Assembly (NCBI GenBank): GCA_902790015.1
Contig: CADAQF010000008.1
Location: 13,920 to 77,919 of the forward strand
Direction of reading: 5' to 3'
DNA from: an uncultured Eubacteriales bacterium
GTDB lineage: Bacteria > Bacillota > Clostridia > Christensenellales > Aristaeellaceae
DNA length: 64,000 nt
Part shown: one piece after another, positions 6,357 through 62,610 of the stretch
Numbering within the stretch: the first letter of the stretch is position 1
How the letters are laid out: every line of letters begins with the position of its first letter
Position numbers and translations under genes: made by a program
Notes under the pieces: model-generated
Database searches by the model: none
The model's input: the letters and a program-made list of their open reading frames with translations, nothing else
What the model was told of the DNA's origin: nothing

Positions 6357-6387
6357 ACGCAGCGGACCCGTCCGCTGCGTTTTTGTT
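6357..6387 (+). terminator. rho-independent terminator after hup
   Basis: ACGCAGCGGA cccg TCCGCTGCGT followed by TTTTGTT. Confidence 0.8.
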
Positions 6388-6419: not shown

Positions 6420-6454
6420 TTGTTCAAGTATTTTTAAATATATTGTGATATACT
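6420..6454 (+). promoter_or_regulatory. candidate extended -10 promoter for the ribozyme-led operon
   Basis: AT-rich block ending in TGa-TATACT (6446-6454). No good -35 at 17 nt (TTGTTC at 6420 is too far away). Confidence 0.35.
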
Positions 6455-6565
6455 CCGTCATGGGCTTTTGCGCCGGGCAGTTTTGTCCGGCGTGAGCAGG
6501 CCAAGACACGGGAATCAGGCACACGAATAAAATCACTTTCTCCCGGGGGAGGTGCCGGGAGAGCG

Positions 6566-6710
6566 TGATAGCGCCGGGACCATCCATGGTCGACGAGGAC
6601 GGCAGTTATCGAAAGATTCGGCGGGTGCTGCCGCGGCCTTCGGGCGGGTCGAGAGGAAAACGGGAAAAAGCGGAATCAACACCGTAACAAAGCGCTTTCC
6701 GCCGCCTGAA
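6566..6710 (+). promoter_or_regulatory. glmS-class self-cleaving ribozyme / GlcN6P riboswitch
   Basis: A|GCGCC at 6570/6571, then GACGAGGACGGCAGUUAUCGAAAGAUUCGGCGGGUGCUGCC (conserved core with GGCAG/CUGCC pairing). The P3/P4 region has ..UCGAGAGG..AACAAAGCGCUUUCC. It lies in the 5' UTR of the 6742 gene. Confidence 0.85.
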
Positions 6711-6741
6711 CGAGAACGAAGCATATAAAAAGGAGCAATTT

Positions 6742-7404
6742 ATGTATACCATCAGGGATTTATATGATCTGGACCATACGCTGGCCAGGGATTATCTGAG
6801 CGGCTTTACCTATCCGTGGGAAGCGCTCAAGGGCATCAAGGAAATGATCCTGGCCCTGGGGCCCACTTTGGGCGACGACTATGAGCAGCGCGAGCCGGGC
6901 GTCTGGGTGCATAAGACCGCCAAAGTTTTCCCCTCCGCCTATCTGGGCGCGCCCTGCATCATCGGGCCGGAAACGGAGGTGCGCCACTGCGCCTTTATCC
7001 GCGGCTCCGCGCTGGTAGGGGCAAACTGCGTGGTGGGCAATTCCGTGGAGCTCAAGAACGTCATCCTCTTTGACAACGTGCAGACCCCGCATTACAACTA
7101 TGTCGGCGATTCCATCCTGGGCTACAAATCCCACATGGGCGCGGGCAGCATCACCAGCAACGTGAAGTCTGACAAAAAGCTCGTCGTCGTGCACAACGGG
7201 GAGGAGCAAATGGAAACCGGCATCAAGAAATTCGGCGCCATGCTGGGCGACTGGGTGGAGGTCGGCTGCAACTCGGTGCTGAACCCGGGCACGGTCATCG
7301 GCCGGCACAGCAACGTCTATCCCACCAGCTGCGTGCGCGGCGTGGTGCCTGAAAACAGCATCTGGAAAAACAACGGGACCATTGTGACCAAGAAGGAGGA
7401 CTGA
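6742..7404 (+). CDS. left-handed beta-helix (hexapeptide) transferase resembling the GlmU C-terminal acetyltransferase domain
   Basis: 220 aa. VELKNVILFDNVQTPHYNYVGDSILGYKSHMGAGSITSNV...GCNSVLNPGTVIG parallels the GlmU LbH domain. No N-terminal nucleotidyltransferase domain. RBS AAAGGAG. Confidence 0.85.
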   Translation: MYTIRDLYDLDHTLARDYLSGFTYPWEALKGIKEMILALGPTLGDDYEQREPGVWVHKTAKVFPSAYLGAPCIIGPETEVRHCAFIRGSALVGANCVVGNSVELKNVILFDNVQTPHYNYVGDSILGYKSHMGAGSITSNVKSDKKLVVVHNGEEQMETGIKKFGAMLGDWVEVGCNSVLNPGTVIGRHSNVYPTSCVRGVVPENSIWKNNGTIVTKKED

Positions 7405-7406
7405 CC

Positions 7407-8762
7407 ATGGGCAAATATTTCGGGACAGACGGTTTCCGCGGCGAATCCAACGTCGTGCTGACCTTTGACCACGCGGTGAAAACAGGCCGTTTCCTGGGCT
7501 GGTATTTCGGTGCCCGCATCGGCAAAAAAGCGAAGGTGGTCATCGGCAAGGATACCCGCCGGTCGTCCTATATGTATGAATACGGCCTGGTTACGGGCCT
7601 GACCGCGTCCGGGGCGGACGCGTATATCATGCACGTCACCACCACGCCCAGCGTGTCCTACATCACCCGGACGGATGATTTTGACTGCGGCATCATGATC
7701 AGCGCCTCCCATAACCCCTATTACGACAACGGCATCAAGCTGCTGAACAGCAACGGGGAAAAGATGGAGGAGGAAACGCTCCTCAAGGTAGAGGACTATC
7801 TGGACGGCAAGTTTGCCGATATCCCTCTGGCCACCCGGGAAAAGATCGGCTGCACGGTGGACTATGTGGCGGGCCGCAACCGCTATATCGGCTACCTGAT
7901 CTCCACCTCGCGCTTTTCCTTCAAGGGCAAGCGGGTCGGGCTGGACTGCGCCAACGGCGCTTCCTGGTCCATCGCCAAGGCTGTTTTTGACGCTCTCGGC
8001 GCCAAAACCTATGTGATCAACGCGGAGCCCAACGGCGTCAACATCAACCTGGACTGCGGCTCCACCCACATCGAGAGCCTGCAGCGCTTCGTGGTCGGCA
8101 ACGGGCTGGACGTGGGCTTCGCCTTTGACGGCGACGCCGACCGCTGCCTGTGCGTGGATGAAAAGGGCAACGTGATCACCGGCGACCATATCCTGTACGT
8201 ATACGGTCTGTACATGAAGGAAAGAGGCAAACTGGTCAACAACAAGATCGTCACCACGATCATGTCCAACTTTGGCCTGTATAAGGCGCTGGACGCGGTC
8301 GGCATCGAATACGAGAAGACCAAGGTCGGCGATAAATACGTCTACGAAAACATGGTGCAGAACGGCCACCGCATCGGCGGCGAGCAGTCCGGCCATATCA
8401 TCTTCACCAAATACGCCACGACCGGCGACGGCATCCTGACCGCCATCAAGATGATGGAGGTCATGCTGGCCAAGGAAAAGCCCCTGTCCGAGCTGGCCGC
8501 GCCCTGCAAATTCTACCCGCAGGTGCTCAAAAACGTCCGCGTCAAGTCCAAGCCGGACGCCAAAAACGACCCGGACGTGCAGGCCAAGATCGCCGAGGTG
8601 GAGCAGGCGCTTGGCGGCAACGGCCGCATCCTGGTGCGCGAAAGCGGCACGGAGCCGGTGCTGCGCGTGATGGTGGAGGCCGGCAGCGACGAGATCTGCG
8701 AACAGTATGTGGATGCCGTGATCAGCGTGATCAAGCAGAAGGGCCACATCGAGTACCTTTAA
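7407..8762 (+). CDS. glmM: phosphoglucosamine mutase
   Basis: MGKYFGTDGFRGESN, active-site SASHNPYYDNGIK, FDGDADRCL, GGEQSGHIIF. 451 aa. Confidence 0.95.
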   Translation: MGKYFGTDGFRGESNVVLTFDHAVKTGRFLGWYFGARIGKKAKVVIGKDTRRSSYMYEYGLVTGLTASGADAYIMHVTTTPSVSYITRTDDFDCGIMISASHNPYYDNGIKLLNSNGEKMEEETLLKVEDYLDGKFADIPLATREKIGCTVDYVAGRNRYIGYLISTSRFSFKGKRVGLDCANGASWSIAKAVFDALGAKTYVINAEPNGVNINLDCGSTHIESLQRFVVGNGLDVGFAFDGDADRCLCVDEKGNVITGDHILYVYGLYMKERGKLVNNKIVTTIMSNFGLYKALDAVGIEYEKTKVGDKYVYENMVQNGHRIGGEQSGHIIFTKYATTGDGILTAIKMMEVMLAKEKPLSELAAPCKFYPQVLKNVRVKSKPDAKNDPDVQAKIAEVEQALGGNGRILVRESGTEPVLRVMVEAGSDEICEQYVDAVISVIKQKGHIEYL

Positions 8763-8798: not shown

Positions 8799-9590
8799 AT
8801 GCGCGTAGTCATTCAGGACAATTACGAGCACATGAGCCTGTGGGCCGCTCACTATATCGCAGATAAGATCAACAGCCACAGGGAAGCCCGCCCCTTCGTG
8901 CTGGGCCTGCCGACCGGCTCCTCCCCCCTGGGCGTATACAGGGAGCTGATCCGCATGAACCAGGCGGGGGAGTTAAGCTTTTCCAACGTGGTCACCTTCA
9001 ACATGGACGAATACCTGGGCCTGCCCCATGAGCATGACCAGAGTTACTGGTACTTCATGCACGACAATTTCTTCGATCACCTGACGGACATGAAGCCCGA
9101 AAACATCAACATCCTCAACGGCATGACCGACGACCCGGAGGGGGAATGCCGCCGCTACGAGGAAAAGATCGCCTCCTATGGCGGGATCGACCTGTTTATG
9201 GGCGGCATCGGGGTGGACGGCCATCTGGCCTTCAACGAGCCGTATACGTCGCTGACTTCCCGTACGGGCGTCAGGAACCTGACGACGGATACCCGCATCG
9301 TCAACAGCCGCTTCTTTGGCAACGACCCCGAAAAGGTACCGGCCCAGGCCCTGTCCGTCGGCATCGGCACGGTGACGGATTCCAAAGAGGTCCTGGTGCT
9401 GATCAGCGGCCATAATAAGGCCCGCGCCCTGGCGGCCGTGGTCGAGGGCGGCGTCAGCCAGAAATGGACCTGCAGCGCCCTGCAGCTGCACAATGGCGCC
9501 ATCATCGCCTGCGACGAGGAAGCCTGCGGCGAACTGACGGTGGACACCTACAAGTATTTCCTGGATATCGAAAAGAACGAAAGGCTGTAA
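8799..9590 (+). CDS. nagB: glucosamine-6-phosphate deaminase
   Basis: 263 aa, colinear with enterobacterial NagB: FVLGLPTGSSPLGVYRELI...VVTFNMDEYLGLPHEHDQSYWYFMHDNFFDH...GGIGVDGHLAFNEP. Confidence 0.95.
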   Translation: MRVVIQDNYEHMSLWAAHYIADKINSHREARPFVLGLPTGSSPLGVYRELIRMNQAGELSFSNVVTFNMDEYLGLPHEHDQSYWYFMHDNFFDHLTDMKPENINILNGMTDDPEGECRRYEEKIASYGGIDLFMGGIGVDGHLAFNEPYTSLTSRTGVRNLTTDTRIVNSRFFGNDPEKVPAQALSVGIGTVTDSKEVLVLISGHNKARALAAVVEGGVSQKWTCSALQLHNGAIIACDEEACGELTVDTYKYFLDIEKNERL

Positions 9591-9611: not shown

Positions 9612-9659
9612 AGCGGCGCTCCGTGGTCCCTGAGGTCACGGAGCGCCGCTGTTCTTTTT
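9612..9659 (+). terminator. rho-independent terminator after nagB
   Basis: AGCGGCGCTCCGTG ...11 nt... CACGGAGCGCCGCT followed by GTTCTTTTTA. Confidence 0.8.
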
Positions 9660-18937: not shown

Positions 18938-19078
18938 AAAGTGTCTTTAGGGCAGGGTGAGGCCTCGGTGCCGATTCCCGACCGGCGGTATAGTCCGCGA
19001 CCCGCATCCTACATGGTGCGGCTGACCCGTGTGCAACTCCGGGACCGACAGTACAGTCTGGATGGAAGAAGACAGCCG
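18938..19078 (+). promoter_or_regulatory. FMN riboswitch (RFN element)
   Basis: GGGCAGGGUGA...AUUCCCGACCGGCGGUAUAGUCCGCGACCC...GGCUGACCCGUGUGCAACUCCGGGACCGACAGUACAGUCUGGAUGGAAGAAGAC reproduces the conserved RFN core. The closing P1 is GUCUU/AAGAC. Confidence 0.9.
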
Positions 19079-19100
19079 TGATACAATCCGGTGAATGTAT

Positions 19101-19144
19101 CCGCTCGCCTCTGAAGCACTTCTTTGGAGGCGGGCTGTATTATT
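19101..19144 (+). terminator. expression-platform hairpin of the FMN riboswitch (terminator or RBS sequestor)
   Basis: CGCTCGCCTC...GAGGCGGGC stem with inner GAAG/CTTC, followed by TGTATTATT and then the AAGGAGG RBS. Confidence 0.5.
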
Positions 19145-19161
19145 AAGGAGGTACATTCCCT

Positions 19162-19824
19162 ATGAAAAAGTATGATACCAGACGCCTGGTGACCCTGGCC
19201 ATGCTGGCGGCCATCGCCTTCGCCGCGGTGGCCTTCATCCGCATCCCCGCGGTCCAGTTCCTCAAGTACGAGCCCAAGGACGTCGTCCTCGCCATCACCG
19301 GCCTGCTGTTCGGGCCCGCGGACGCGCTGATGGTGACGGTGGTGGTTTCCCTGGTCGAAATGGTGACGATATCGGACACCGGGCTTATCGGCCTTTTGAT
19401 GAACGTCATTTCCTCCGCGTCTTTCGTGCTTGTGGCCTCCGCCCTGTACAAGAAAAACCGCACCCTCAAAGGCGCGGTCATCGGCCTGATCGCGGGCGTG
19501 CTCATCATGACGGCCGTCATGGTGCTGTGGAACTATCTGATCACGCCGATCTATCAGGGTGTGCCGCGCAGCGTCGTGGCGGGGATGCTGGTGCCCGTTT
19601 TCCTGCCCTTCAACCTGATCAAGGGCAGCCTGAACGCGGGGCTTACGATGCTTTTGTACAAGCCGGTCGTGCAGACGCTCAGAAAGGCCCATCTGGTGCC
19701 CGAAAGCGAAAAAAAGACGGCCGGCGGCCGCTCCGGCAGGGTGAGCGTTTACGTGGCGCTGGTGTCGGTGTTCGTGATTGCGACCTCCATCCTTCTTATG
19801 CTGGCGGTCGGCGGAAAGCTGTGA
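19162..19824 (+). CDS. ribU: ECF transporter S component for riboflavin (RibU-like)
   Basis: 220 aa, 5-6 TM. TRRLVTLAMLAAIAFAAVAFIRIP...KYEPKDVVLAITGLLFGP typical of ECF S components. It lies directly behind an FMN riboswitch. Confidence 0.85.
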   Translation: MKKYDTRRLVTLAMLAAIAFAAVAFIRIPAVQFLKYEPKDVVLAITGLLFGPADALMVTVVVSLVEMVTISDTGLIGLLMNVISSASFVLVASALYKKNRTLKGAVIGLIAGVLIMTAVMVLWNYLITPIYQGVPRSVVAGMLVPVFLPFNLIKGSLNAGLTMLLYKPVVQTLRKAHLVPESEKKTAGGRSGRVSVYVALVSVFVIATSILLMLAVGGKL

Positions 19825-20679
19825 TTGAACGTGCTGTATGAACTGACAGGGCCGGTGGTGCACGGCCGGGGAAAGGGCGCTGCGGCGGGCTTTCCCACGG
19901 CCAACCTGGCCCTCATGGAAGGGGAGCTTCTGCCCCCGGCCGGCGTGTACGCGACCCGCGCGGAGCTTTCCTGCGGGGTGTTTACGGGCGTGACCAACGT
20001 GGGCACCCGCCCCACGGCGGACAGCCGGGAGGACGTCACCGTGGAAACCTGGCTTCCCGGGTTTTCGGGAAACCTCTACGGGGAGCAGATCCGCCTTCAT
20101 TTCCTTCACTGGCTGCGCGGCATCAGCCGTTTTCCCGATATGGCCGCGCTCAAAAGGCAGATAGACCTGGACGCCCAGGAGGCGCAAAGCTGGGCCGGGC
20201 GCTTTCCTGACGGCATCGGCTTTTTCACCTTCTCGGCGGAGGAAACGCGCGGGCTTTCCCAAAGGCTGGCGCCGCTTCTTCCTACGGGCAGCGTCGTGGT
20301 GCTCAGGGGGGAGATGGGCGCCGGCAAGAGCGAGTTTTCCCGCGGTCTTGCCCGCGGCATGGGGATCACCGGCCCCGTGCCCAGCCCCACCTTCACCATC
20401 CTGAACGAATATGATGAAGGAAGTCTTCCTTTTTATCATTTCGACTGGTACCGGGTGTCGGACGAAGAAGAGCTGTTGGAAATAGGCGCGCCCGACTATC
20501 TGCCGGGCCGGGGGGTGACGGCGGTCGAATGGGCGGAAAGGGCAGAGTCCCTTCTGCCGGCTAAAAGGCTCGAGGTTTTCCTGCAGCCCGTCGGCGAAAA
20601 CGCCCGGCTGATCCTCTTTTCCGCCCTGGGCGGGGCGGAAAATCCCGCGCTCCGATTGAAGGAGGATTTCTCATGCTGA
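19825..20679 (+). CDS. tsaE: fusion protein: riboflavin kinase domain + tRNA t6A37 ATPase TsaE
   Basis: Residues 1 to about 125: VVHGRGKGAAAGFPTANL...GVY...NVGTRPT...VETWLPGFSGNLYGEQIRLHFLHWLR (RibF C-terminal kinase pattern). Residues from about 133 to 284: LRGEMGAGKSEF...VPSPTFTILNEY...YHFDWYRV...AVEWAE (TsaE/YjeE). Single ORF. TTG at 19825 follows the ribU stop directly (alternative GTG at 19831). Confidence 0.85.
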   Translation: MNVLYELTGPVVHGRGKGAAAGFPTANLALMEGELLPPAGVYATRAELSCGVFTGVTNVGTRPTADSREDVTVETWLPGFSGNLYGEQIRLHFLHWLRGISRFPDMAALKRQIDLDAQEAQSWAGRFPDGIGFFTFSAEETRGLSQRLAPLLPTGSVVVLRGEMGAGKSEFSRGLARGMGITGPVPSPTFTILNEYDEGSLPFYHFDWYRVSDEEELLEIGAPDYLPGRGVTAVEWAERAESLLPAKRLEVFLQPVGENARLILFSALGGAENPALRLKEDFSC

Positions 20680-52551: not shown

Positions 52552-52580
52552 TTGACACTTTGGTCATTCTGTGTTAGAAT
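52552..52580 (+). promoter_or_regulatory. promoter of tRNA-Thr
   Basis: TTGACA, 17 nt, TAGAAT, 13 nt upstream of the mature 5' end. Confidence 0.65.
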
Positions 52581-52593
52581 TCCATCGTTGTCC

Positions 52594-52669
<76 letters not shown>

Positions 52670-52922: not shown

Positions 52923-54791
<1,869 letters not shown>

Positions 54792-54895
54792 GGCTCCCTT
54801 GCCTCCTGTCAGCGGTTTTGCAGCAAAATGATTTTTGAATTATGCGGCCTCACATTCAAAAAGTCAATGCTTCCGCTGTTCAAAAACCGTTTTTT

Positions 54896-56296
54896 TCATC
54901 GCAGAAAAGCGAGGATTTCCCGGGCCGCCGCTCTTCCGTCAGCCAATGCTTTTACCACCAGTGACTGGCCGTTTCGCATATCACCGGCGGAAAAGAGGTT
55001 GCCGCCCAGATGGTGGGACCCATCCGGGGGCAGGAGCCGTCCCCGGCTGTCGGCTGAGAGGGAAAAGCCGTCAAGTGTTTCATTTTCACAGCCGATAAAA
55101 CCGGCGGCGATCAGAAGCAATCCGCAGGGCATGGTCTTTTCCGACCCCGGGACAGGCAGGAGCTTTCCGTCAGCCTGCTTTTTGAGGCGCACTGTCTTCA
55201 GCGCCGTGATACGGTTTTCTGCGTCCGTCTGGATGCTTTGAACGGTGGTTTCATAGACCCGGGGGTCCACTCCCTGTAAAGCCGCGGCTTCCACCTGGCC
55301 GTAATCGGTGCGAAGGACACGGGGCCATTCGGGCCAGGGGTTCCCGGCGGCGCGCTTTTCAGGGGCCTTCGGCATCATTTCAAGCTGGGTGACGCTCTGG
55401 CAGCCCTGACGCAGCGCGGTGCCCACACAGTCGTTGCCCGTGTCCCCGCCGCCCACCACGACTACATGCTTTCCCCGGGCGGTGATCTCAGGCCCGGCCT
55501 TGGACAGGATGCCCCGGGTAGCAGCGGTGAGATAATCCACGGCAAAATGCACCCCTGCGGCATCCATGTGCTCTACATGGAGGGAACGGGGCTTGCGGGA
55601 GCCGCAGCACAAAAGCACCGCATCGTATGCGCTTAGCAGATCGGGCGCCGCGGAGGTGTTCAGCAGGAAGGAAACGCCTTCTTCTTCCATCAGGCGAATA
55701 CGCCGCGCAATGACCTCCTTGGGCAGCTTCATATTGGGAATACCGTACATGAGCAGCCCGCCGGGACGGTCTGCCCGCTCGATCACAGTGACAAAGTTGC
55801 CTGCCTGGTTCAGCAGGTCTGCCGCTGCCAGTCCCGAGGGCCCGCTGCCCACGACAGCCACCCTTTTTCCTGTGCGGGCCAAAGGGCGGCGGGGCCGGAT
55901 CCAGCCTTTTTCAAACCCGGTCTCGATCAGGTACAGCTCGTTGTCCCGGTTGGTCACGCCATCGTCGGCCAGGTTGCAGGCCTTTTCGCACAGCGCCGGG
56001 CACACCCGGCCGGTAAATTCGGGGAAGGGGGCCGTCATCAGAAGGCGGCTCAGCGCTTCCCGTTCCTGGCCCTGATAAAGCAGGTCGTTCCATTCCGGGA
56101 TCAGGTTGTGCAGGGGACACCCGAAATCCGACTGGCAGAAGGGCACGCCGCAGTCCATGCAGCGCCCCGCCTGGCAGCGCCTTACGTCTATGGGCTGAGG
56201 CGTATGCAGATTGTCAAAATCCCGCAGCCGCTCCAGCGCATCGCGGAAGCGGTTTTCCGTCCGGGGATATTCCATGAATCCTGTGGTCTTGCCCAT
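54896..56296 (-). CDS. gltD: glutamate synthase small subunit (NADPH, GltD type)
   Basis: N-terminal Fe-S region CMDCGVPFCQ...GCPLHNLIPEWN, VAVVGSGPSGLAAA dinucleotide fold, second VVVVGGGDTGNDC. Confidence 0.9.
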   Translation of the reverse strand: MGKTTGFMEYPRTENRFRDALERLRDFDNLHTPQPIDVRRCQAGRCMDCGVPFCQSDFGCPLHNLIPEWNDLLYQGQEREALSRLLMTAPFPEFTGRVCPALCEKACNLADDGVTNRDNELYLIETGFEKGWIRPRRPLARTGKRVAVVGSGPSGLAAADLLNQAGNFVTVIERADRPGGLLMYGIPNMKLPKEVIARRIRLMEEEGVSFLLNTSAAPDLLSAYDAVLLCCGSRKPRSLHVEHMDAAGVHFAVDYLTAATRGILSKAGPEITARGKHVVVVGGGDTGNDCVGTALRQGCQSVTQLEMMPKAPEKRAAGNPWPEWPRVLRTDYGQVEAAALQGVDPRVYETTVQSIQTDAENRITALKTVRLKKQADGKLLPVPGSEKTMPCGLLLIAAGFIGCENETLDGFSLSADSRGRLLPPDGSHHLGGNLFSAGDMRNGQSLVVKALADGRAAAREILAFLR

Positions 56297-56300
56297 ACCG

Positions 56301-60619
<4,319 letters not shown>

Positions 60620-60623
<4 letters not shown>

Positions 60624-61162
60624 TCCTCCGTCCCCTTTGACGATTTCAGGATTTGCGCCGCGTAATCGGCCATTCTGACGCCGTGGTTCATGGCGTACTG
60701 CTGAAGTGTCCGATGGGCTTCGGGCTCGGTGATGCCGTGTTGCTTCATAAGCAGCCGCTTAGCCCGCTCTACCATTTCTTTTTCCGTCCCTGCCCGCCTG
60801 GGCAGCCGCATCTGGTGAAGCTGGGAAAGCATCTGCACTGCTCCTACCAGCGCCTGGGAAGACAGGGGCAGCGGAAGACGGAAAATCTCCGGCGCTTCGC
60901 AGCTTTCCAGCACCAGGGGCTTGGCGATCAGCAGGATCTGGATGCGGTCCCCATAGTCCCACTGAAGCTCGTCCGGCTTACAGCCGGGCAGCAAGCCCAT
61001 CAGCACCACGACGCCATCCTCGCATTCGTTGATGGTGCGCCTGAGCTCGCTCCCGGAAGCGCAGCATCGAAAAACGGCAAAACCGGAGGAAGCCAGCAGC
61101 TGGGAAAGCTTCTCCCTGCTTTCTTCCGCAGCGCTGGCGACGACGATCCTTGCCACTGGCAT
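60620..61162 (-). CDS. ANTAR-domain RNA-binding regulator with degenerate receiver domain
   Basis: C-terminal ERAKRLLMKQHGITEPEAHRTLQQYAMNHGVRMADYAAQIL is an ANTAR motif. The N-terminal CheY-like fold lacks the acidic pair (VVASAAEES) and the phospho-Asp position (VVVLMGLLPG). The stop overlaps the gltB start. Confidence 0.85.
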
Positions 61163-61278: not shown

Positions 61279-62610
61279 TCAGTACATGACAATATACCGG
61301 TCGATCTCCCACTGGCTTACGTGGGTGCGGTAGGCGTCCCATTCCTTTTCCTTGCCCTCCACATACTGGGAAAGCACGTGCTCGCCCAATGCGCTGCAGA
61401 TGACGTCGTCCGCCTTCAGGCAGTCGATGGCTTCGCGGAGCGTCCCGGGCAGGGAATGAATGCCCTTTGCCTTCCGGGTTTCCCCGTCCATGGCGAAGAT
61501 GTTCTCGGTGATTTCATCCGGGGGTGTCAGGCCCTTTTCAATGCCGTCCAGGCCCGCGGCCAGGCACACCGCCATGTTCAGGTACGGGTTGCAGCTGGGA
61601 TCGGGGCAGCGAAGCTCCACGCGGGTGCCCATGCCCCGGGAGGCGGGGATGCGGATAAGGGCACTTCGGTTGCTGGCGCTCCAGGCCAGATAGCAGGGGG
61701 CTTCATAGCCCGGCACCAGGCGTTTGTAGCTGTTGACCAGGGGATTGGTGACGGCCGCCATGCCCCGTACGTGGGCAAGGATACCGGCGATGAAGGCGTA
61801 AGCTTCTTTGGAAAGGCCCCGCTTGTCAGAAGGATCGGCGAATACGTTTTTCCCATCCTTGAACAGGCTCATGTTGGTGTGCATGCCGCTGCCGTTGATG
61901 CCGAACACCGGCTTGGGCATAAAGGTGGCGTGCAGGCCGTTCTTCTGGGCCAGAGTCTTTACGGCCAGCTTGAAGGTCATGATGTTGTCGGCGGAGGTCA
62001 GCGCGTCTGTATACTTGAAGTCGATCTCGTGCTGACCCGCTGCCACCTCGTGATGGCTGGCTTCGATCTCAAACCCCATCTGTTCAAGCGTCATGCAGAT
62101 TTCGCGGCGGGTACTCTCCCCGTGGTCCAGGGGGCCTAAGTCAAAGTAGCCCGCTTCGTCGCCGGTGGTGGTCGTGGGGCGGCCCTGATCGTCCGTCTGG
62201 AAGAGGAAAAACTCCATCTCCGGCCCTACGTTGAAGGAATACCCCATGTCCGAGGCCTTTTTAAGCTCCTTTTTCAATACGCCCCGGGGATCGCCGGCAA
62301 AGGGCGTGCCGTCCGGGTTGTACACGTCGCAGATGAGCCTGGCCACCTTTCCGTGCTGGGGCCGCCAGGGCAAAATGGCGTAGGTATCCAGGTCGGGCCG
62401 CAGGTACTGGTCGCTTTCGTTGATGCGCACGAAGCCCTCGATGCTGCTTCCGTCGATCATGATCTGGTCGTTGACGGCCTTTTCGATCTGGCTGGCGGTA
62501 ATGGCCACGTTTTTCAGCTGGCCGAAGATATCGGTGAACTGCATCCGGATAAACTCCACATCATCTTCCCGCACCATGCGGATGATGTCTTCCTTGCTGT
62601 ACTTGCTCAT
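61279..62610 (-). CDS. glnA: glutamine synthetase, type I
   Basis: 443 aa. [18 protein letters not shown]...DGSSIEGF...PWRP...[10 protein letters not shown]...[15 protein letters not shown]...MPKP..G.NGSGMH.N.SL...[13 protein letters not shown]. Confidence 0.95.

Follow-up and report, generated by a model that had tools for sequence, protein, structure and literature searches.

A glmS-class ribozyme in front of an LbH-glmM-nagB operon in rumen and gut Clostridia

Background

To our knowledge, the glmS ribozyme, the textbook metabolite-dependent ribozyme, has always been described as a feedback device of GlmS, the synthase of glucosamine 6-phosphate (GlcN6P). The usual view of nagB, the gene of a GlcN6P deaminase/isomerase, is that of a catabolic opposite to glmS. 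Here we analysed one stretch of DNA (the window; 64,000 nucleotides of contig CADAQF010000008.1, from an uncultured Eubacteriales bacterium), in which a glmS-class ribozyme is followed by the gene of an LbH-fold acetyltransferase-like protein (called LbH below), glmM and nagB instead of glmS. An intact ribozyme under selection has moved to an operon that is mostly headed by nagB, across a clade of rumen and gut Clostridia.

In Bacillus subtilis, the glmS ribozyme's GlcN6P-dependent self-cleavage produces a 5'-OH end, after which the mRNA downstream is rapidly degraded and the gene thereby repressed (Collins et al. 2007, as summarised in PMC5473149). The element in the window belongs to the same RNA family as the ribozymes of Bacillus, Thermoanaerobacter, Staphylococcus and Clostridioides, and shares with them the cleavage context A/GCGCC (the slash marks the scissile bond), the core GACGAGG/UUAUCGAA/UCGGCGG, helices P1 to P4.1, the P3.1 pseudoknot and the position in the 5' leader on the coding strand. 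The ligand GlcN6P is presumably common to all of them, and mRNA decay after cleavage most likely so. However, LbH, glmM and nagB lie downstream in the window (nagB comes first in most relatives), the genome's own glmS has no ribozyme, helix P2 reads GGCAG/CUGCC, and an extra conserved hairpin with a GGAGG loop, here called P0, precedes the cleavage site.

An anabolic NagB (GlcN6P isomerase) is described from Giardia and Entamoeba, organisms without GlcN6P synthase (PMC4281351). For these enzymes as for that of the window, formation of GlcN6P from fructose 6-phosphate (Fru6P) and ammonium for cell-wall precursors is proposed, and the allosteric site is altered. But the window enzyme is bacterial and of the long hexamer type, GlmS is present in the same genome, we infer the direction of the reaction, and only one of seven allosteric residues is radically changed.

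A full-text literature search, which did not cover the main surveys of glmS-ribozyme distribution, returned no report of a link between the ribozyme and nagB or glmM, and an RNA-regulon survey (PMC3766115) lists glmS as a motif only. What we describe is a known ribozyme class in a new regulatory wiring. Prior mention of it cannot be excluded, and with the nagB wiring in about one in ten sampled ribozymes (see below), others may well have come across it in alignments.

Identity and structure of the ribozyme

The Rfam model of the glmS ribozyme (RF00234) matches positions 6559-6710 (+ strand) of the window over its whole length (model positions 1-167 of 167) with 71.6 bits, above the gathering score of 37 bits (E 1.8e-14 for the 64-kb window). 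All strongly conserved consensus positions of the model are intact in this copy. The predicted scissile bond is aligned to the invariant A/GCGCC of the model, which is unvaried in all 37 clade sequences where it could be located, and the cleavage context and core segments are invariant or nearly so across 38 clade sequences.

In an alignment of 38 copies, standard pairs make up 96.1% of the cells, compared with 35-51% when the partners are slid by 1-3 columns. Both-sided (compensatory) changes are found in 20 of 32 pairs, with every variable helix included, and the observed pairing and covariation values were reached by 0 of 500 shuffles. The alignment covers the canonical helices and P3.1 and was fitted to a model holding most of the helices, which favours those somewhat; for P3.1, a pairing that is not part of the search model, all four pairs covary. 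The partners in P2a and P2.1 are invariant, so covariation is uninformative for both. By the degree of pairing and the compensatory changes, the element is under selection and is no chance match.

From the above, the window element belongs in the glmS ribozyme family, every structural feature that we tested being present. A position before glmS is a contextual criterion and not a structural one, and the RNA is therefore still filed in this family. It is almost certainly a working glmS ribozyme, for which GlcN6P-dependent self-cleavage is predicted. The preliminary description of this DNA had recognised a glmS-class ribozyme by the cleavage context at 6570/6571, a short P1 with the conserved core behind it, a GGCAG/CUGCC helix in place of GGAGG/CCUCC, and AACAAAG in the P3/P4 region. 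All of these were recovered at the expected places (Table 1), and the covariance search that it had proposed agrees with the assignment.

Genes downstream of the ribozyme

A distance of 31 nt separates the end of the Rfam match from the ATG at 6742, with a good ribosome-binding site (RBS) of the LbH gene in between. Profile searches assign the three genes to LbH (C-terminal half of TIGR03992), glmM and nagB, and all four PGM/PMM domains of GlmM were found with Pfam. LbH-glmM-nagB look like one ribozyme-led transcription unit, since + strand terminators stand only before and after it, and a terminator scan found none on the + strand between 6380 and 9612. The preliminary description had likewise read a GlmU-acetyltransferase-like protein, glmM and nagB rather than glmS behind the element, a distance of about 30 nt to the start region and a strong terminator at the end of the operon, and this reading stands.

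Distribution of the ribozyme-nagB arrangement

Relatives of LbH number more than 593 in species-representative genomes, and the survey covered the best 80 (76-91% identical), nearly all from rumen or gut metagenome-assembled genomes (MAGs). Ribozymes in this clade were searched for with a covariance model built from six Rfam-confirmed copies. The model found the ribozyme in 37 of the 80 loci, and in each case it lies upstream of the cluster and shares its strand. Ranked by similarity to the window, the 20 closest loci have it in 19 cases, the 20 after these in 14 and the following 10 in 4, and the last 30 have none. Absence in nagB-bearing relatives as a filter artefact was ruled out, as a filter-off cmsearch of ten nagB-bearing, ribozyme-less loci returned no ribozyme.

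Most frequent is ribozyme-nagB-LbH-glmM, with about 24 of the 37 loci, then ribozyme-LbH-nagB-glmM with about 9, while the order ribozyme-LbH-glmM-nagB was found in the window and 3 others. The ribozyme tracks nagB: of the 37 ribozyme loci 35 contain nagB, but of the 43 ribozyme-less ones only about 18. In one relative (L004, 3202-8243, + strand) the order is ribozyme-LbH-nagB-glmM-glmS, with no internal + strand terminator; the ribozyme match there is 240 nt long owing to a large insertion, and the same is true of L008 and L029. Ribozyme-less relatives include the orders glmS-LbH-glmM, glmS-nagB-LbH-glmM, LbH-glmM-glmS and nagB-LbH-glmM-glmS, and the cluster therefore keeps biosynthetic company. 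The gene nagA was not found within 6 kb in any of the 37 ribozyme loci (1 of 80 loci overall), which argues against a catabolic NagB, and an N-acetylglucosamine (GlcNAc) phosphotransferase system (PTS) gene is near the cluster only once, in L026. A survey of relatives for this linkage had been suggested in the preliminary description; the ribozyme-nagB arrangement extends across the clade and is no isolated oddity.

Closely related clusters of nagB, LbH and glmM without the ribozyme (L022, L027, L039, L041, L045, L051, L053, L059 and L060) have no other Rfam element upstream, where tested. Exact copies of the window NagB are found on ENA metagenome contigs, one of them labelled STEW19, which we take to be a rumen series.

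As an independent sample, metagenome contigs were scanned with the ribozyme core pattern, which gave 80 loci; 12 of these were chance matches without an Rfam hit and were left out of the counts. The next gene is glmS in 50 loci and nagB in 6, L117 is a case by itself, and 11 loci were too short to classify. In other words, nagB follows about 6 of 57 confirmed metagenome ribozymes, and 5 of the 6 are from the window's clade. Outside the clade, L144 (5929-6834, - strand) contains a ribozyme with an RF00234 score of 106.8 bits; immediately behind it lies the gene of a 241-aa monomer-type NagB, only 43% identical to the one in the window. The clade ribozymes have modest Rfam scores of 57-72 bits (six members scanned), compared with 107 bits for L144. 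In L144, cwlD lies upstream, and nagB is followed by AmmeMemoRadiSam genes, cdaA, a YbbR/CdaR-like gene and glmM, a setting typical of spore-forming Firmicutes. Since L144 is unrelated to the window's clade, at least two lineages have acquired or retained the ribozyme-nagB link.

A different gene order was seen in L117 (6016-10195, + strand), where the first gene behind a ribozyme of 60.7 bits encodes a 698-aa type III glutamine synthetase and the second is glmS. In L117 the supply of the amino donor would also come under ribozyme control.

Leader upstream of the cleavage site

An extended -10 element was read upstream of the ribozyme. It was not listed by the consensus promoter scan for want of a good -35 hexamer, and the equivalent site in related loci has clear TTGACA-17-TATAAT promoters. 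With a plausible transcript start near 6461, the leader up to the cleavage site would be about 110 nt long.

The P0 hairpin is predicted at -24 kcal/mol in the window. Generally in the clade, the pairing partner of nucleotides -2 to about -7 is a segment some 35-45 nt upstream, right after a conserved TAAAAYAG. In 42 clade sequences the mean minimum free energy (MFE) z-score of P0 is -2.9, and the 3' strand occurs as 29 distinct 6-mers; a complementary partner is found in 41 of the 42, compared with 33.7 +/- 2.2 in shuffles. Of 37 loci, 26 have GGAGG at -19 to -26, compared with 7% of random 55-mers, and 36 have a 4-mer core like that of the Shine-Dalgarno (SD) sequence, compared with 46%. P0-equivalent positions were recorded for L001-L050, L085, L093, L133, L147 and L156.

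We conjecture that the P0 motif shields the uncleaved mRNA from 5' exonuclease in the way of a STAB-SD element, and that cleavage detaches it. STAB-SD elements, 5' mRNA stabilisers of Gram-positive bacteria such as the one in the cryIIIA leader, were reportedly described by Agaisse and Lereclus in 1996. The related locus L001 carries the nonamer GAAAGGAGG, which we take to be identical to the cryIIIA-leader stabiliser. The two systems are alike in having an SD-like GAAAGGAGG/GGAGG in an untranslated 5' leader with no start codon after it; the difference is that the motif described here lies in a hairpin loop just upstream of a ribozyme cleavage site, and hence is detachable by cleavage. A point on the other side is that ordinary glmS leaders contain similar motifs upstream of the cleavage site, though less often (GGAGG in 10 of 47, the 4-mer core in 30 of 47). 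P0 with GGAGG as a clade-unique signature was dropped for this reason, and the SD-like motif may be a general, overlooked trait of glmS leaders. Two other explanations of P0 were rejected: a small upstream open reading frame (ORF), as a start codon is not consistently present, and sequestration of the RBS, as the loop of P0, rich in purines just as the RBS is, shows no complementarity to it.

NagB sequence

The NagB of the window is 54% identical to E. coli NagB and conserves the catalytic residues Asp72, His143, Glu148, Arg172 and Lys208. The residues of the site for N-acetylglucosamine 6-phosphate (GlcNAc6P), Tyr121, Asp141, Glu148, Ser151, Arg158, Lys160 and Tyr254 (PMC4281351), correspond to Y, D, E, T, G, R and Y in the window. 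The position of E. coli Arg158 (residue 157 in the window) is Gly in 52 of 52 clade NagBs, which have the motif SRTG[VLI]R[DN]LT compared with SRTRIKTLT. This replacement is no more than a hint of altered NagB allostery. Lost allostery had been considered as evidence for an anabolic NagB and was downgraded, as only Arg158 is radically changed.

The glmS gene of the same window

A canonical glmS lies 46 kb from the ribozyme, and its product contains the GATase and SIS domains (Pfam). It stands at the end of a - strand cluster with the order glnA, ANTAR regulator, gltB, gltD, glmS; only 104 nt separate gltD from glmS, with no terminator in between. A hidden ribozyme before this glmS was looked for with an Rfam scan of 54500-56500, in which nothing glmS-like was found at E<=10. 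Being placed in the glnA/gltB/gltD cluster without a ribozyme, GlmS would therefore serve as the glutamine-dependent route, and the arrangement suggests nitrogen-linked control of the gene. The preliminary description had missed this glmS, together with the clade-wide wiring, the P0 hairpin and the GlmU of L013 mentioned below.

LbH acetyltransferase-like protein

The best family match of LbH is TIGR03992 (archaeal-type GlmU), with 139.8 bits over profile positions 215-393 of 393. The scores are below the full-length cutoffs (139.8 vs 292 for TIGR03992 and 53.8 vs 367 for TIGR01173), as expected for a protein that spans only the C-terminal half of the bifunctional models. The fold is supported by Pfam Hexapep (43.6 bits, cutoff 27) and LbH_EIF2B (46.5 bits). 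The best PDB match is ST0452 (2ggo/5z09), residues 242-390, with E 4e-21 and about 150 residues aligned without gaps; the PHxxYVGD motif is kept, and H117, Y120, N140 and K146 of LbH align with His308, Tyr311, Asn331 and Lys337 of ST0452. We assume these four ST0452 residues to be catalytic, roles that a literature check did not confirm. LbH is a probable amino-sugar-1-phosphate N-acetyltransferase, with its enzyme-family membership provisional.

Compared with ST0452 of Sulfolobus tokodaii and the GlmU C-domain, LbH has the same fold and the PHxxYVGD motif, and its gene is next to glmM, as in nearly all of the 80 loci. But it is a stand-alone protein of 220 aa without a nucleotidyltransferase domain, and it coexists with GlmU in L013. 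LbH is unusually well conserved, being 76-91% identical across MAGs labelled as different families, compared with 64-83% for the adjacent GlmM. LbH as a replacement for a lost GlmU acetyltransferase domain was dropped, as L013 encodes a complete GlmU.

Regulatory reading and alternatives

We consider it probable that the ribozyme represses the operon. Such a sign is supported by L004, which places glmS behind the same ribozyme, where activation by GlcN6P would be illogical; it is also supported by the leader, as its SD-like hairpin would be removed by cleavage. Repression by GlcN6P is a stabilising feedback only if the operon makes GlcN6P, which would mean that NagB is aminating; the preliminary description had likewise called repression logical on condition of an aminating NagB. 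An anabolic NagB is favoured because the ribozyme tracks nagB and usually abuts it, because the unrelated L144 also has the ribozyme and then nagB, because nagB clusters with glmM, LbH and sometimes glmS and not with catabolic genes, and because the habitat is ammonia-rich while the genome's GlmS sits with the genes of the glutamine synthetase-glutamate synthase (GS-GOGAT) pathway. Precedent comes from the anabolic NagBs of Giardia and Entamoeba (PMC4281351), and on the kinetic side a bovine enzyme has a Km of 3.7 mM for NH4+ (PMC11593775). The whole package, a repressing ribozyme together with an anabolic, Fru6P-aminating NagB, is proposed with moderate confidence.

Under this proposal, the RNA would cleave itself between A6570 and G6571 when GlcN6P is abundant, and the coding mRNA would be parted from its 5'-triphosphate end and from P0. 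P0, with its SD-like GGAGG, may act as a 5' stabiliser of the STAB-SD type that is lost on cleavage, and the 5'-OH downstream fragment would be degraded by RNase J, by analogy with B. subtilis, turning the operon off. In the ammonia-rich rumen, NagB would convert Fru6P and NH4+ to GlcN6P, and GlmM and the LbH enzyme would carry it onward to GlcNAc-1-P, so GlcN6P would feed back on its own synthesis as it does at glmS. NagB and GlmS would then divide the labour in the way of glutamate dehydrogenase (GDH) and GS-GOGAT.

Several points weigh against this proposal. The equilibrium of the NagB reaction favours deamination, as do most studied NagBs (PMC11593775, PMC5902328). The Km of E. coli NagB for NH4+ is about 31 mM (PMC11593775), and the NagB of Akkermansia is unable to aminate Fru6P under physiological conditions (PMC5902328). 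GlmS is encoded in the same genome, so that there is no need for an anabolic NagB. Of the seven allosteric residues of the window NagB, six are kept (four identical) or conservatively replaced, and loss of GlcNAc6P control is therefore not established. Two loci, L046 and L050, have the order ribozyme-LbH-glmM without nagB. For the assumed role of LbH, the complete canonical GlmU in L013 (9504-10967), 1.5 kb downstream, is an adverse point. Moreover, with GlmS or uptake as the source of GlcN6P, it would be counter-intuitive to repress GlmM at high GlcN6P.

An alternative is an OFF switch aimed at LbH and glmM, in which the ribozyme would be a pathway-level feedback on the enzymes for the UDP-GlcNAc precursor, and nagB a passenger or a bidirectional GlcN6P/Fru6P buffer. 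L046 and L050 fit such a target, and so do the genome's GlmS and the fact that the LbH-glmM pair is the invariant core in nearly all 80 loci, while nagB is absent from many ribozyme-less ones. However, the ribozyme stands immediately before nagB in about two dozen of the 37 loci (commonest order above) and its presence follows that of nagB; in L144 nagB comes directly after the ribozyme, with other same-strand genes following in an operon of putative extent; and less GlmM at substrate excess is not stabilising unless the source is lowered too. We regard a target of LbH and glmM with nagB as a bystander as possible but unlikely. That the element is an inactive relic, a former glmS leader stranded by gene rearrangement, is hardly credible. 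Its usual target is indeed not downstream and glmS is far away, but the match is full-length and high-scoring with the conserved positions intact, the ribozyme is kept in 37 species-level loci, where it always heads the same operon, and compensatory changes in every variable helix and in the pseudoknot exclude a relic.

The opposite sign of control has also to be considered. In an ON switch, cleavage would raise the expression of an operon for GlcN6P disposal, in which NagB is catabolic or serves overflow; it could do so, for instance, by taking away an inhibitory or unstable leader and leaving a compact, protected 5' end, while GlmS would be left to nitrogen status. NagB, GlmM and LbH are coherent as consumers of GlcN6P or its product, glmS is regulated elsewhere in the genome, the thermodynamics and the behaviour of most studied NagBs given above favour deamination, and cleavage removes a conserved, structured leader of 110 nt including P0. 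Collins and co-workers (2007) are said to have found cleaved glmS RNA to be stable in hosts without RNase J. But Clostridia generally encode RNase J, and we know of no activating glmS ribozyme. With glmS in the ribozyme-led unit, as in L004, GlcN6P activation would be a runaway loop. In addition, complementarity between leader and RBS was not seen, the P0 loop itself resembling the RBS, and the scarcity of catabolic genes around the ribozyme loci (no nearby nagA, uptake limited to the one PTS gene) does not fit a disposal operon. On this evidence an ON switch appears improbable.

If repression by the ribozyme is true, the ribozyme in effect labels NagB as a GlcN6P producer, and in ammonia-rich anaerobic habitats cell-wall amino sugars would be made by a route that depends on ammonium and spares glutamine, a counterpart of the split between GDH and GS-GOGAT in nitrogen assimilation. 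If activation were true, it would be the first case of a glmS ribozyme that raises expression by cleaving itself, and one class would have opposite signs set by the leader. The annotation of nagB in metabolic models of rumen microbes is affected, and the wiring bears on the assumption of glmS-ribozyme-directed antibacterials that glmS is the target.

Features of the window

Table 1. Positions of the ribozyme, its leader, the downstream operon and the glmS cluster in the 64-kb window
Feature	Position	Strand	Remarks
Terminator after upstream HU gene	6357-6380		
Extended -10 element TGaTATACT	6446-6454	+	inferred from sequence alone
TAAAAT ahead of P0	6528-6533	+	
P0 hairpin	6532-6569	+	adjoins cleavage site; absent from Rfam model
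P0 outer stem	6532-6536/6565-6569	+	
P0 inner stem	6540-6546/6555-6561	+	
P0 loop GGGAGGUG	6547-6554	+	SD-like GGAGG 6548-6552
Predicted scissile bond	A(-1)6570 / G(+1)6571	+	aligned to A/GCGCC of RF00234
P2.1 complementarity	CGCC 6572-75 with GGCG 6620-23	+	
P1	6578-6581/6588-6591	+	
Core GACGAGG...GUUAUCGAA...UUCGGCGG	6592-6624	+	
Conserved segments	GACGAGG 6592-6598; UUAUCGA 6606-6612; UCGGCGG 6618-6624; ACAAAG 6687-6692	+	
P2	6600-6604/6629-6633	+	GGCAG/CUGCC; consensus GGAGG/CCUCC
P2a	6609-12/6618-21	+	
P3	6634-37/6648-51	+	
P3.1 pseudoknot	6643-46/6703-06	+	
P4	6655-61/6694-6700	+	
P4.1	6670-73/6682-85	+	
AACAAAG, P4 region	6686-6692	+	
RBS AAAGGAG of LbH gene	6729-6735	+	read from sequence
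LbH gene	6742-7404	+	220 aa; GlmU C-terminal / ST0452 type; TIGR03992, Hexapep
glmM, phosphoglucosamine mutase	7407-8762	+	451 aa; TIGR01455 528.2 bits, cutoff 447.6
nagB, GlcN6P deaminase/isomerase	8799-9590	+	263 aa; long hexamer-type; TIGR00502 377.8 bits, cutoff 236.9
Intrinsic terminator after nagB	9612-9650 plus T-run (to 9660)	+	17-bp stem, 12 G-C pairs
Terminator after glmS	52704-52678	-	
glmS, canonical	52923-54791	-	622 aa; starts MCGIVG; TIGR01135 737.5 bits, cutoff 418
Promoter-like site of glmS	54867-54839	-	TTGACT-17-CATAAT
gltD	54896-56296	-	
gltB	56301-60623	-	
ANTAR-domain regulator	60620-61162	-	PF03861
glnA	61279-62610	-	

Two other elements were noticed in the window. An FMN riboswitch (RF00050, 93.3 bits; window region 18939-20679, + strand) lies upstream of the gene for an ECF riboflavin-transporter S component (19162-19824), which is followed by an ORF (19825-20679, + strand) encoding a riboflavin kinase domain fused to a TsaE domain. 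A tRNA gene (52594-52666, + strand; 74.3 bits) is convergent with the end of glmS and has a near-consensus promoter, TTGACA-17-TAGAAT, at 52552-52580 (+ strand).

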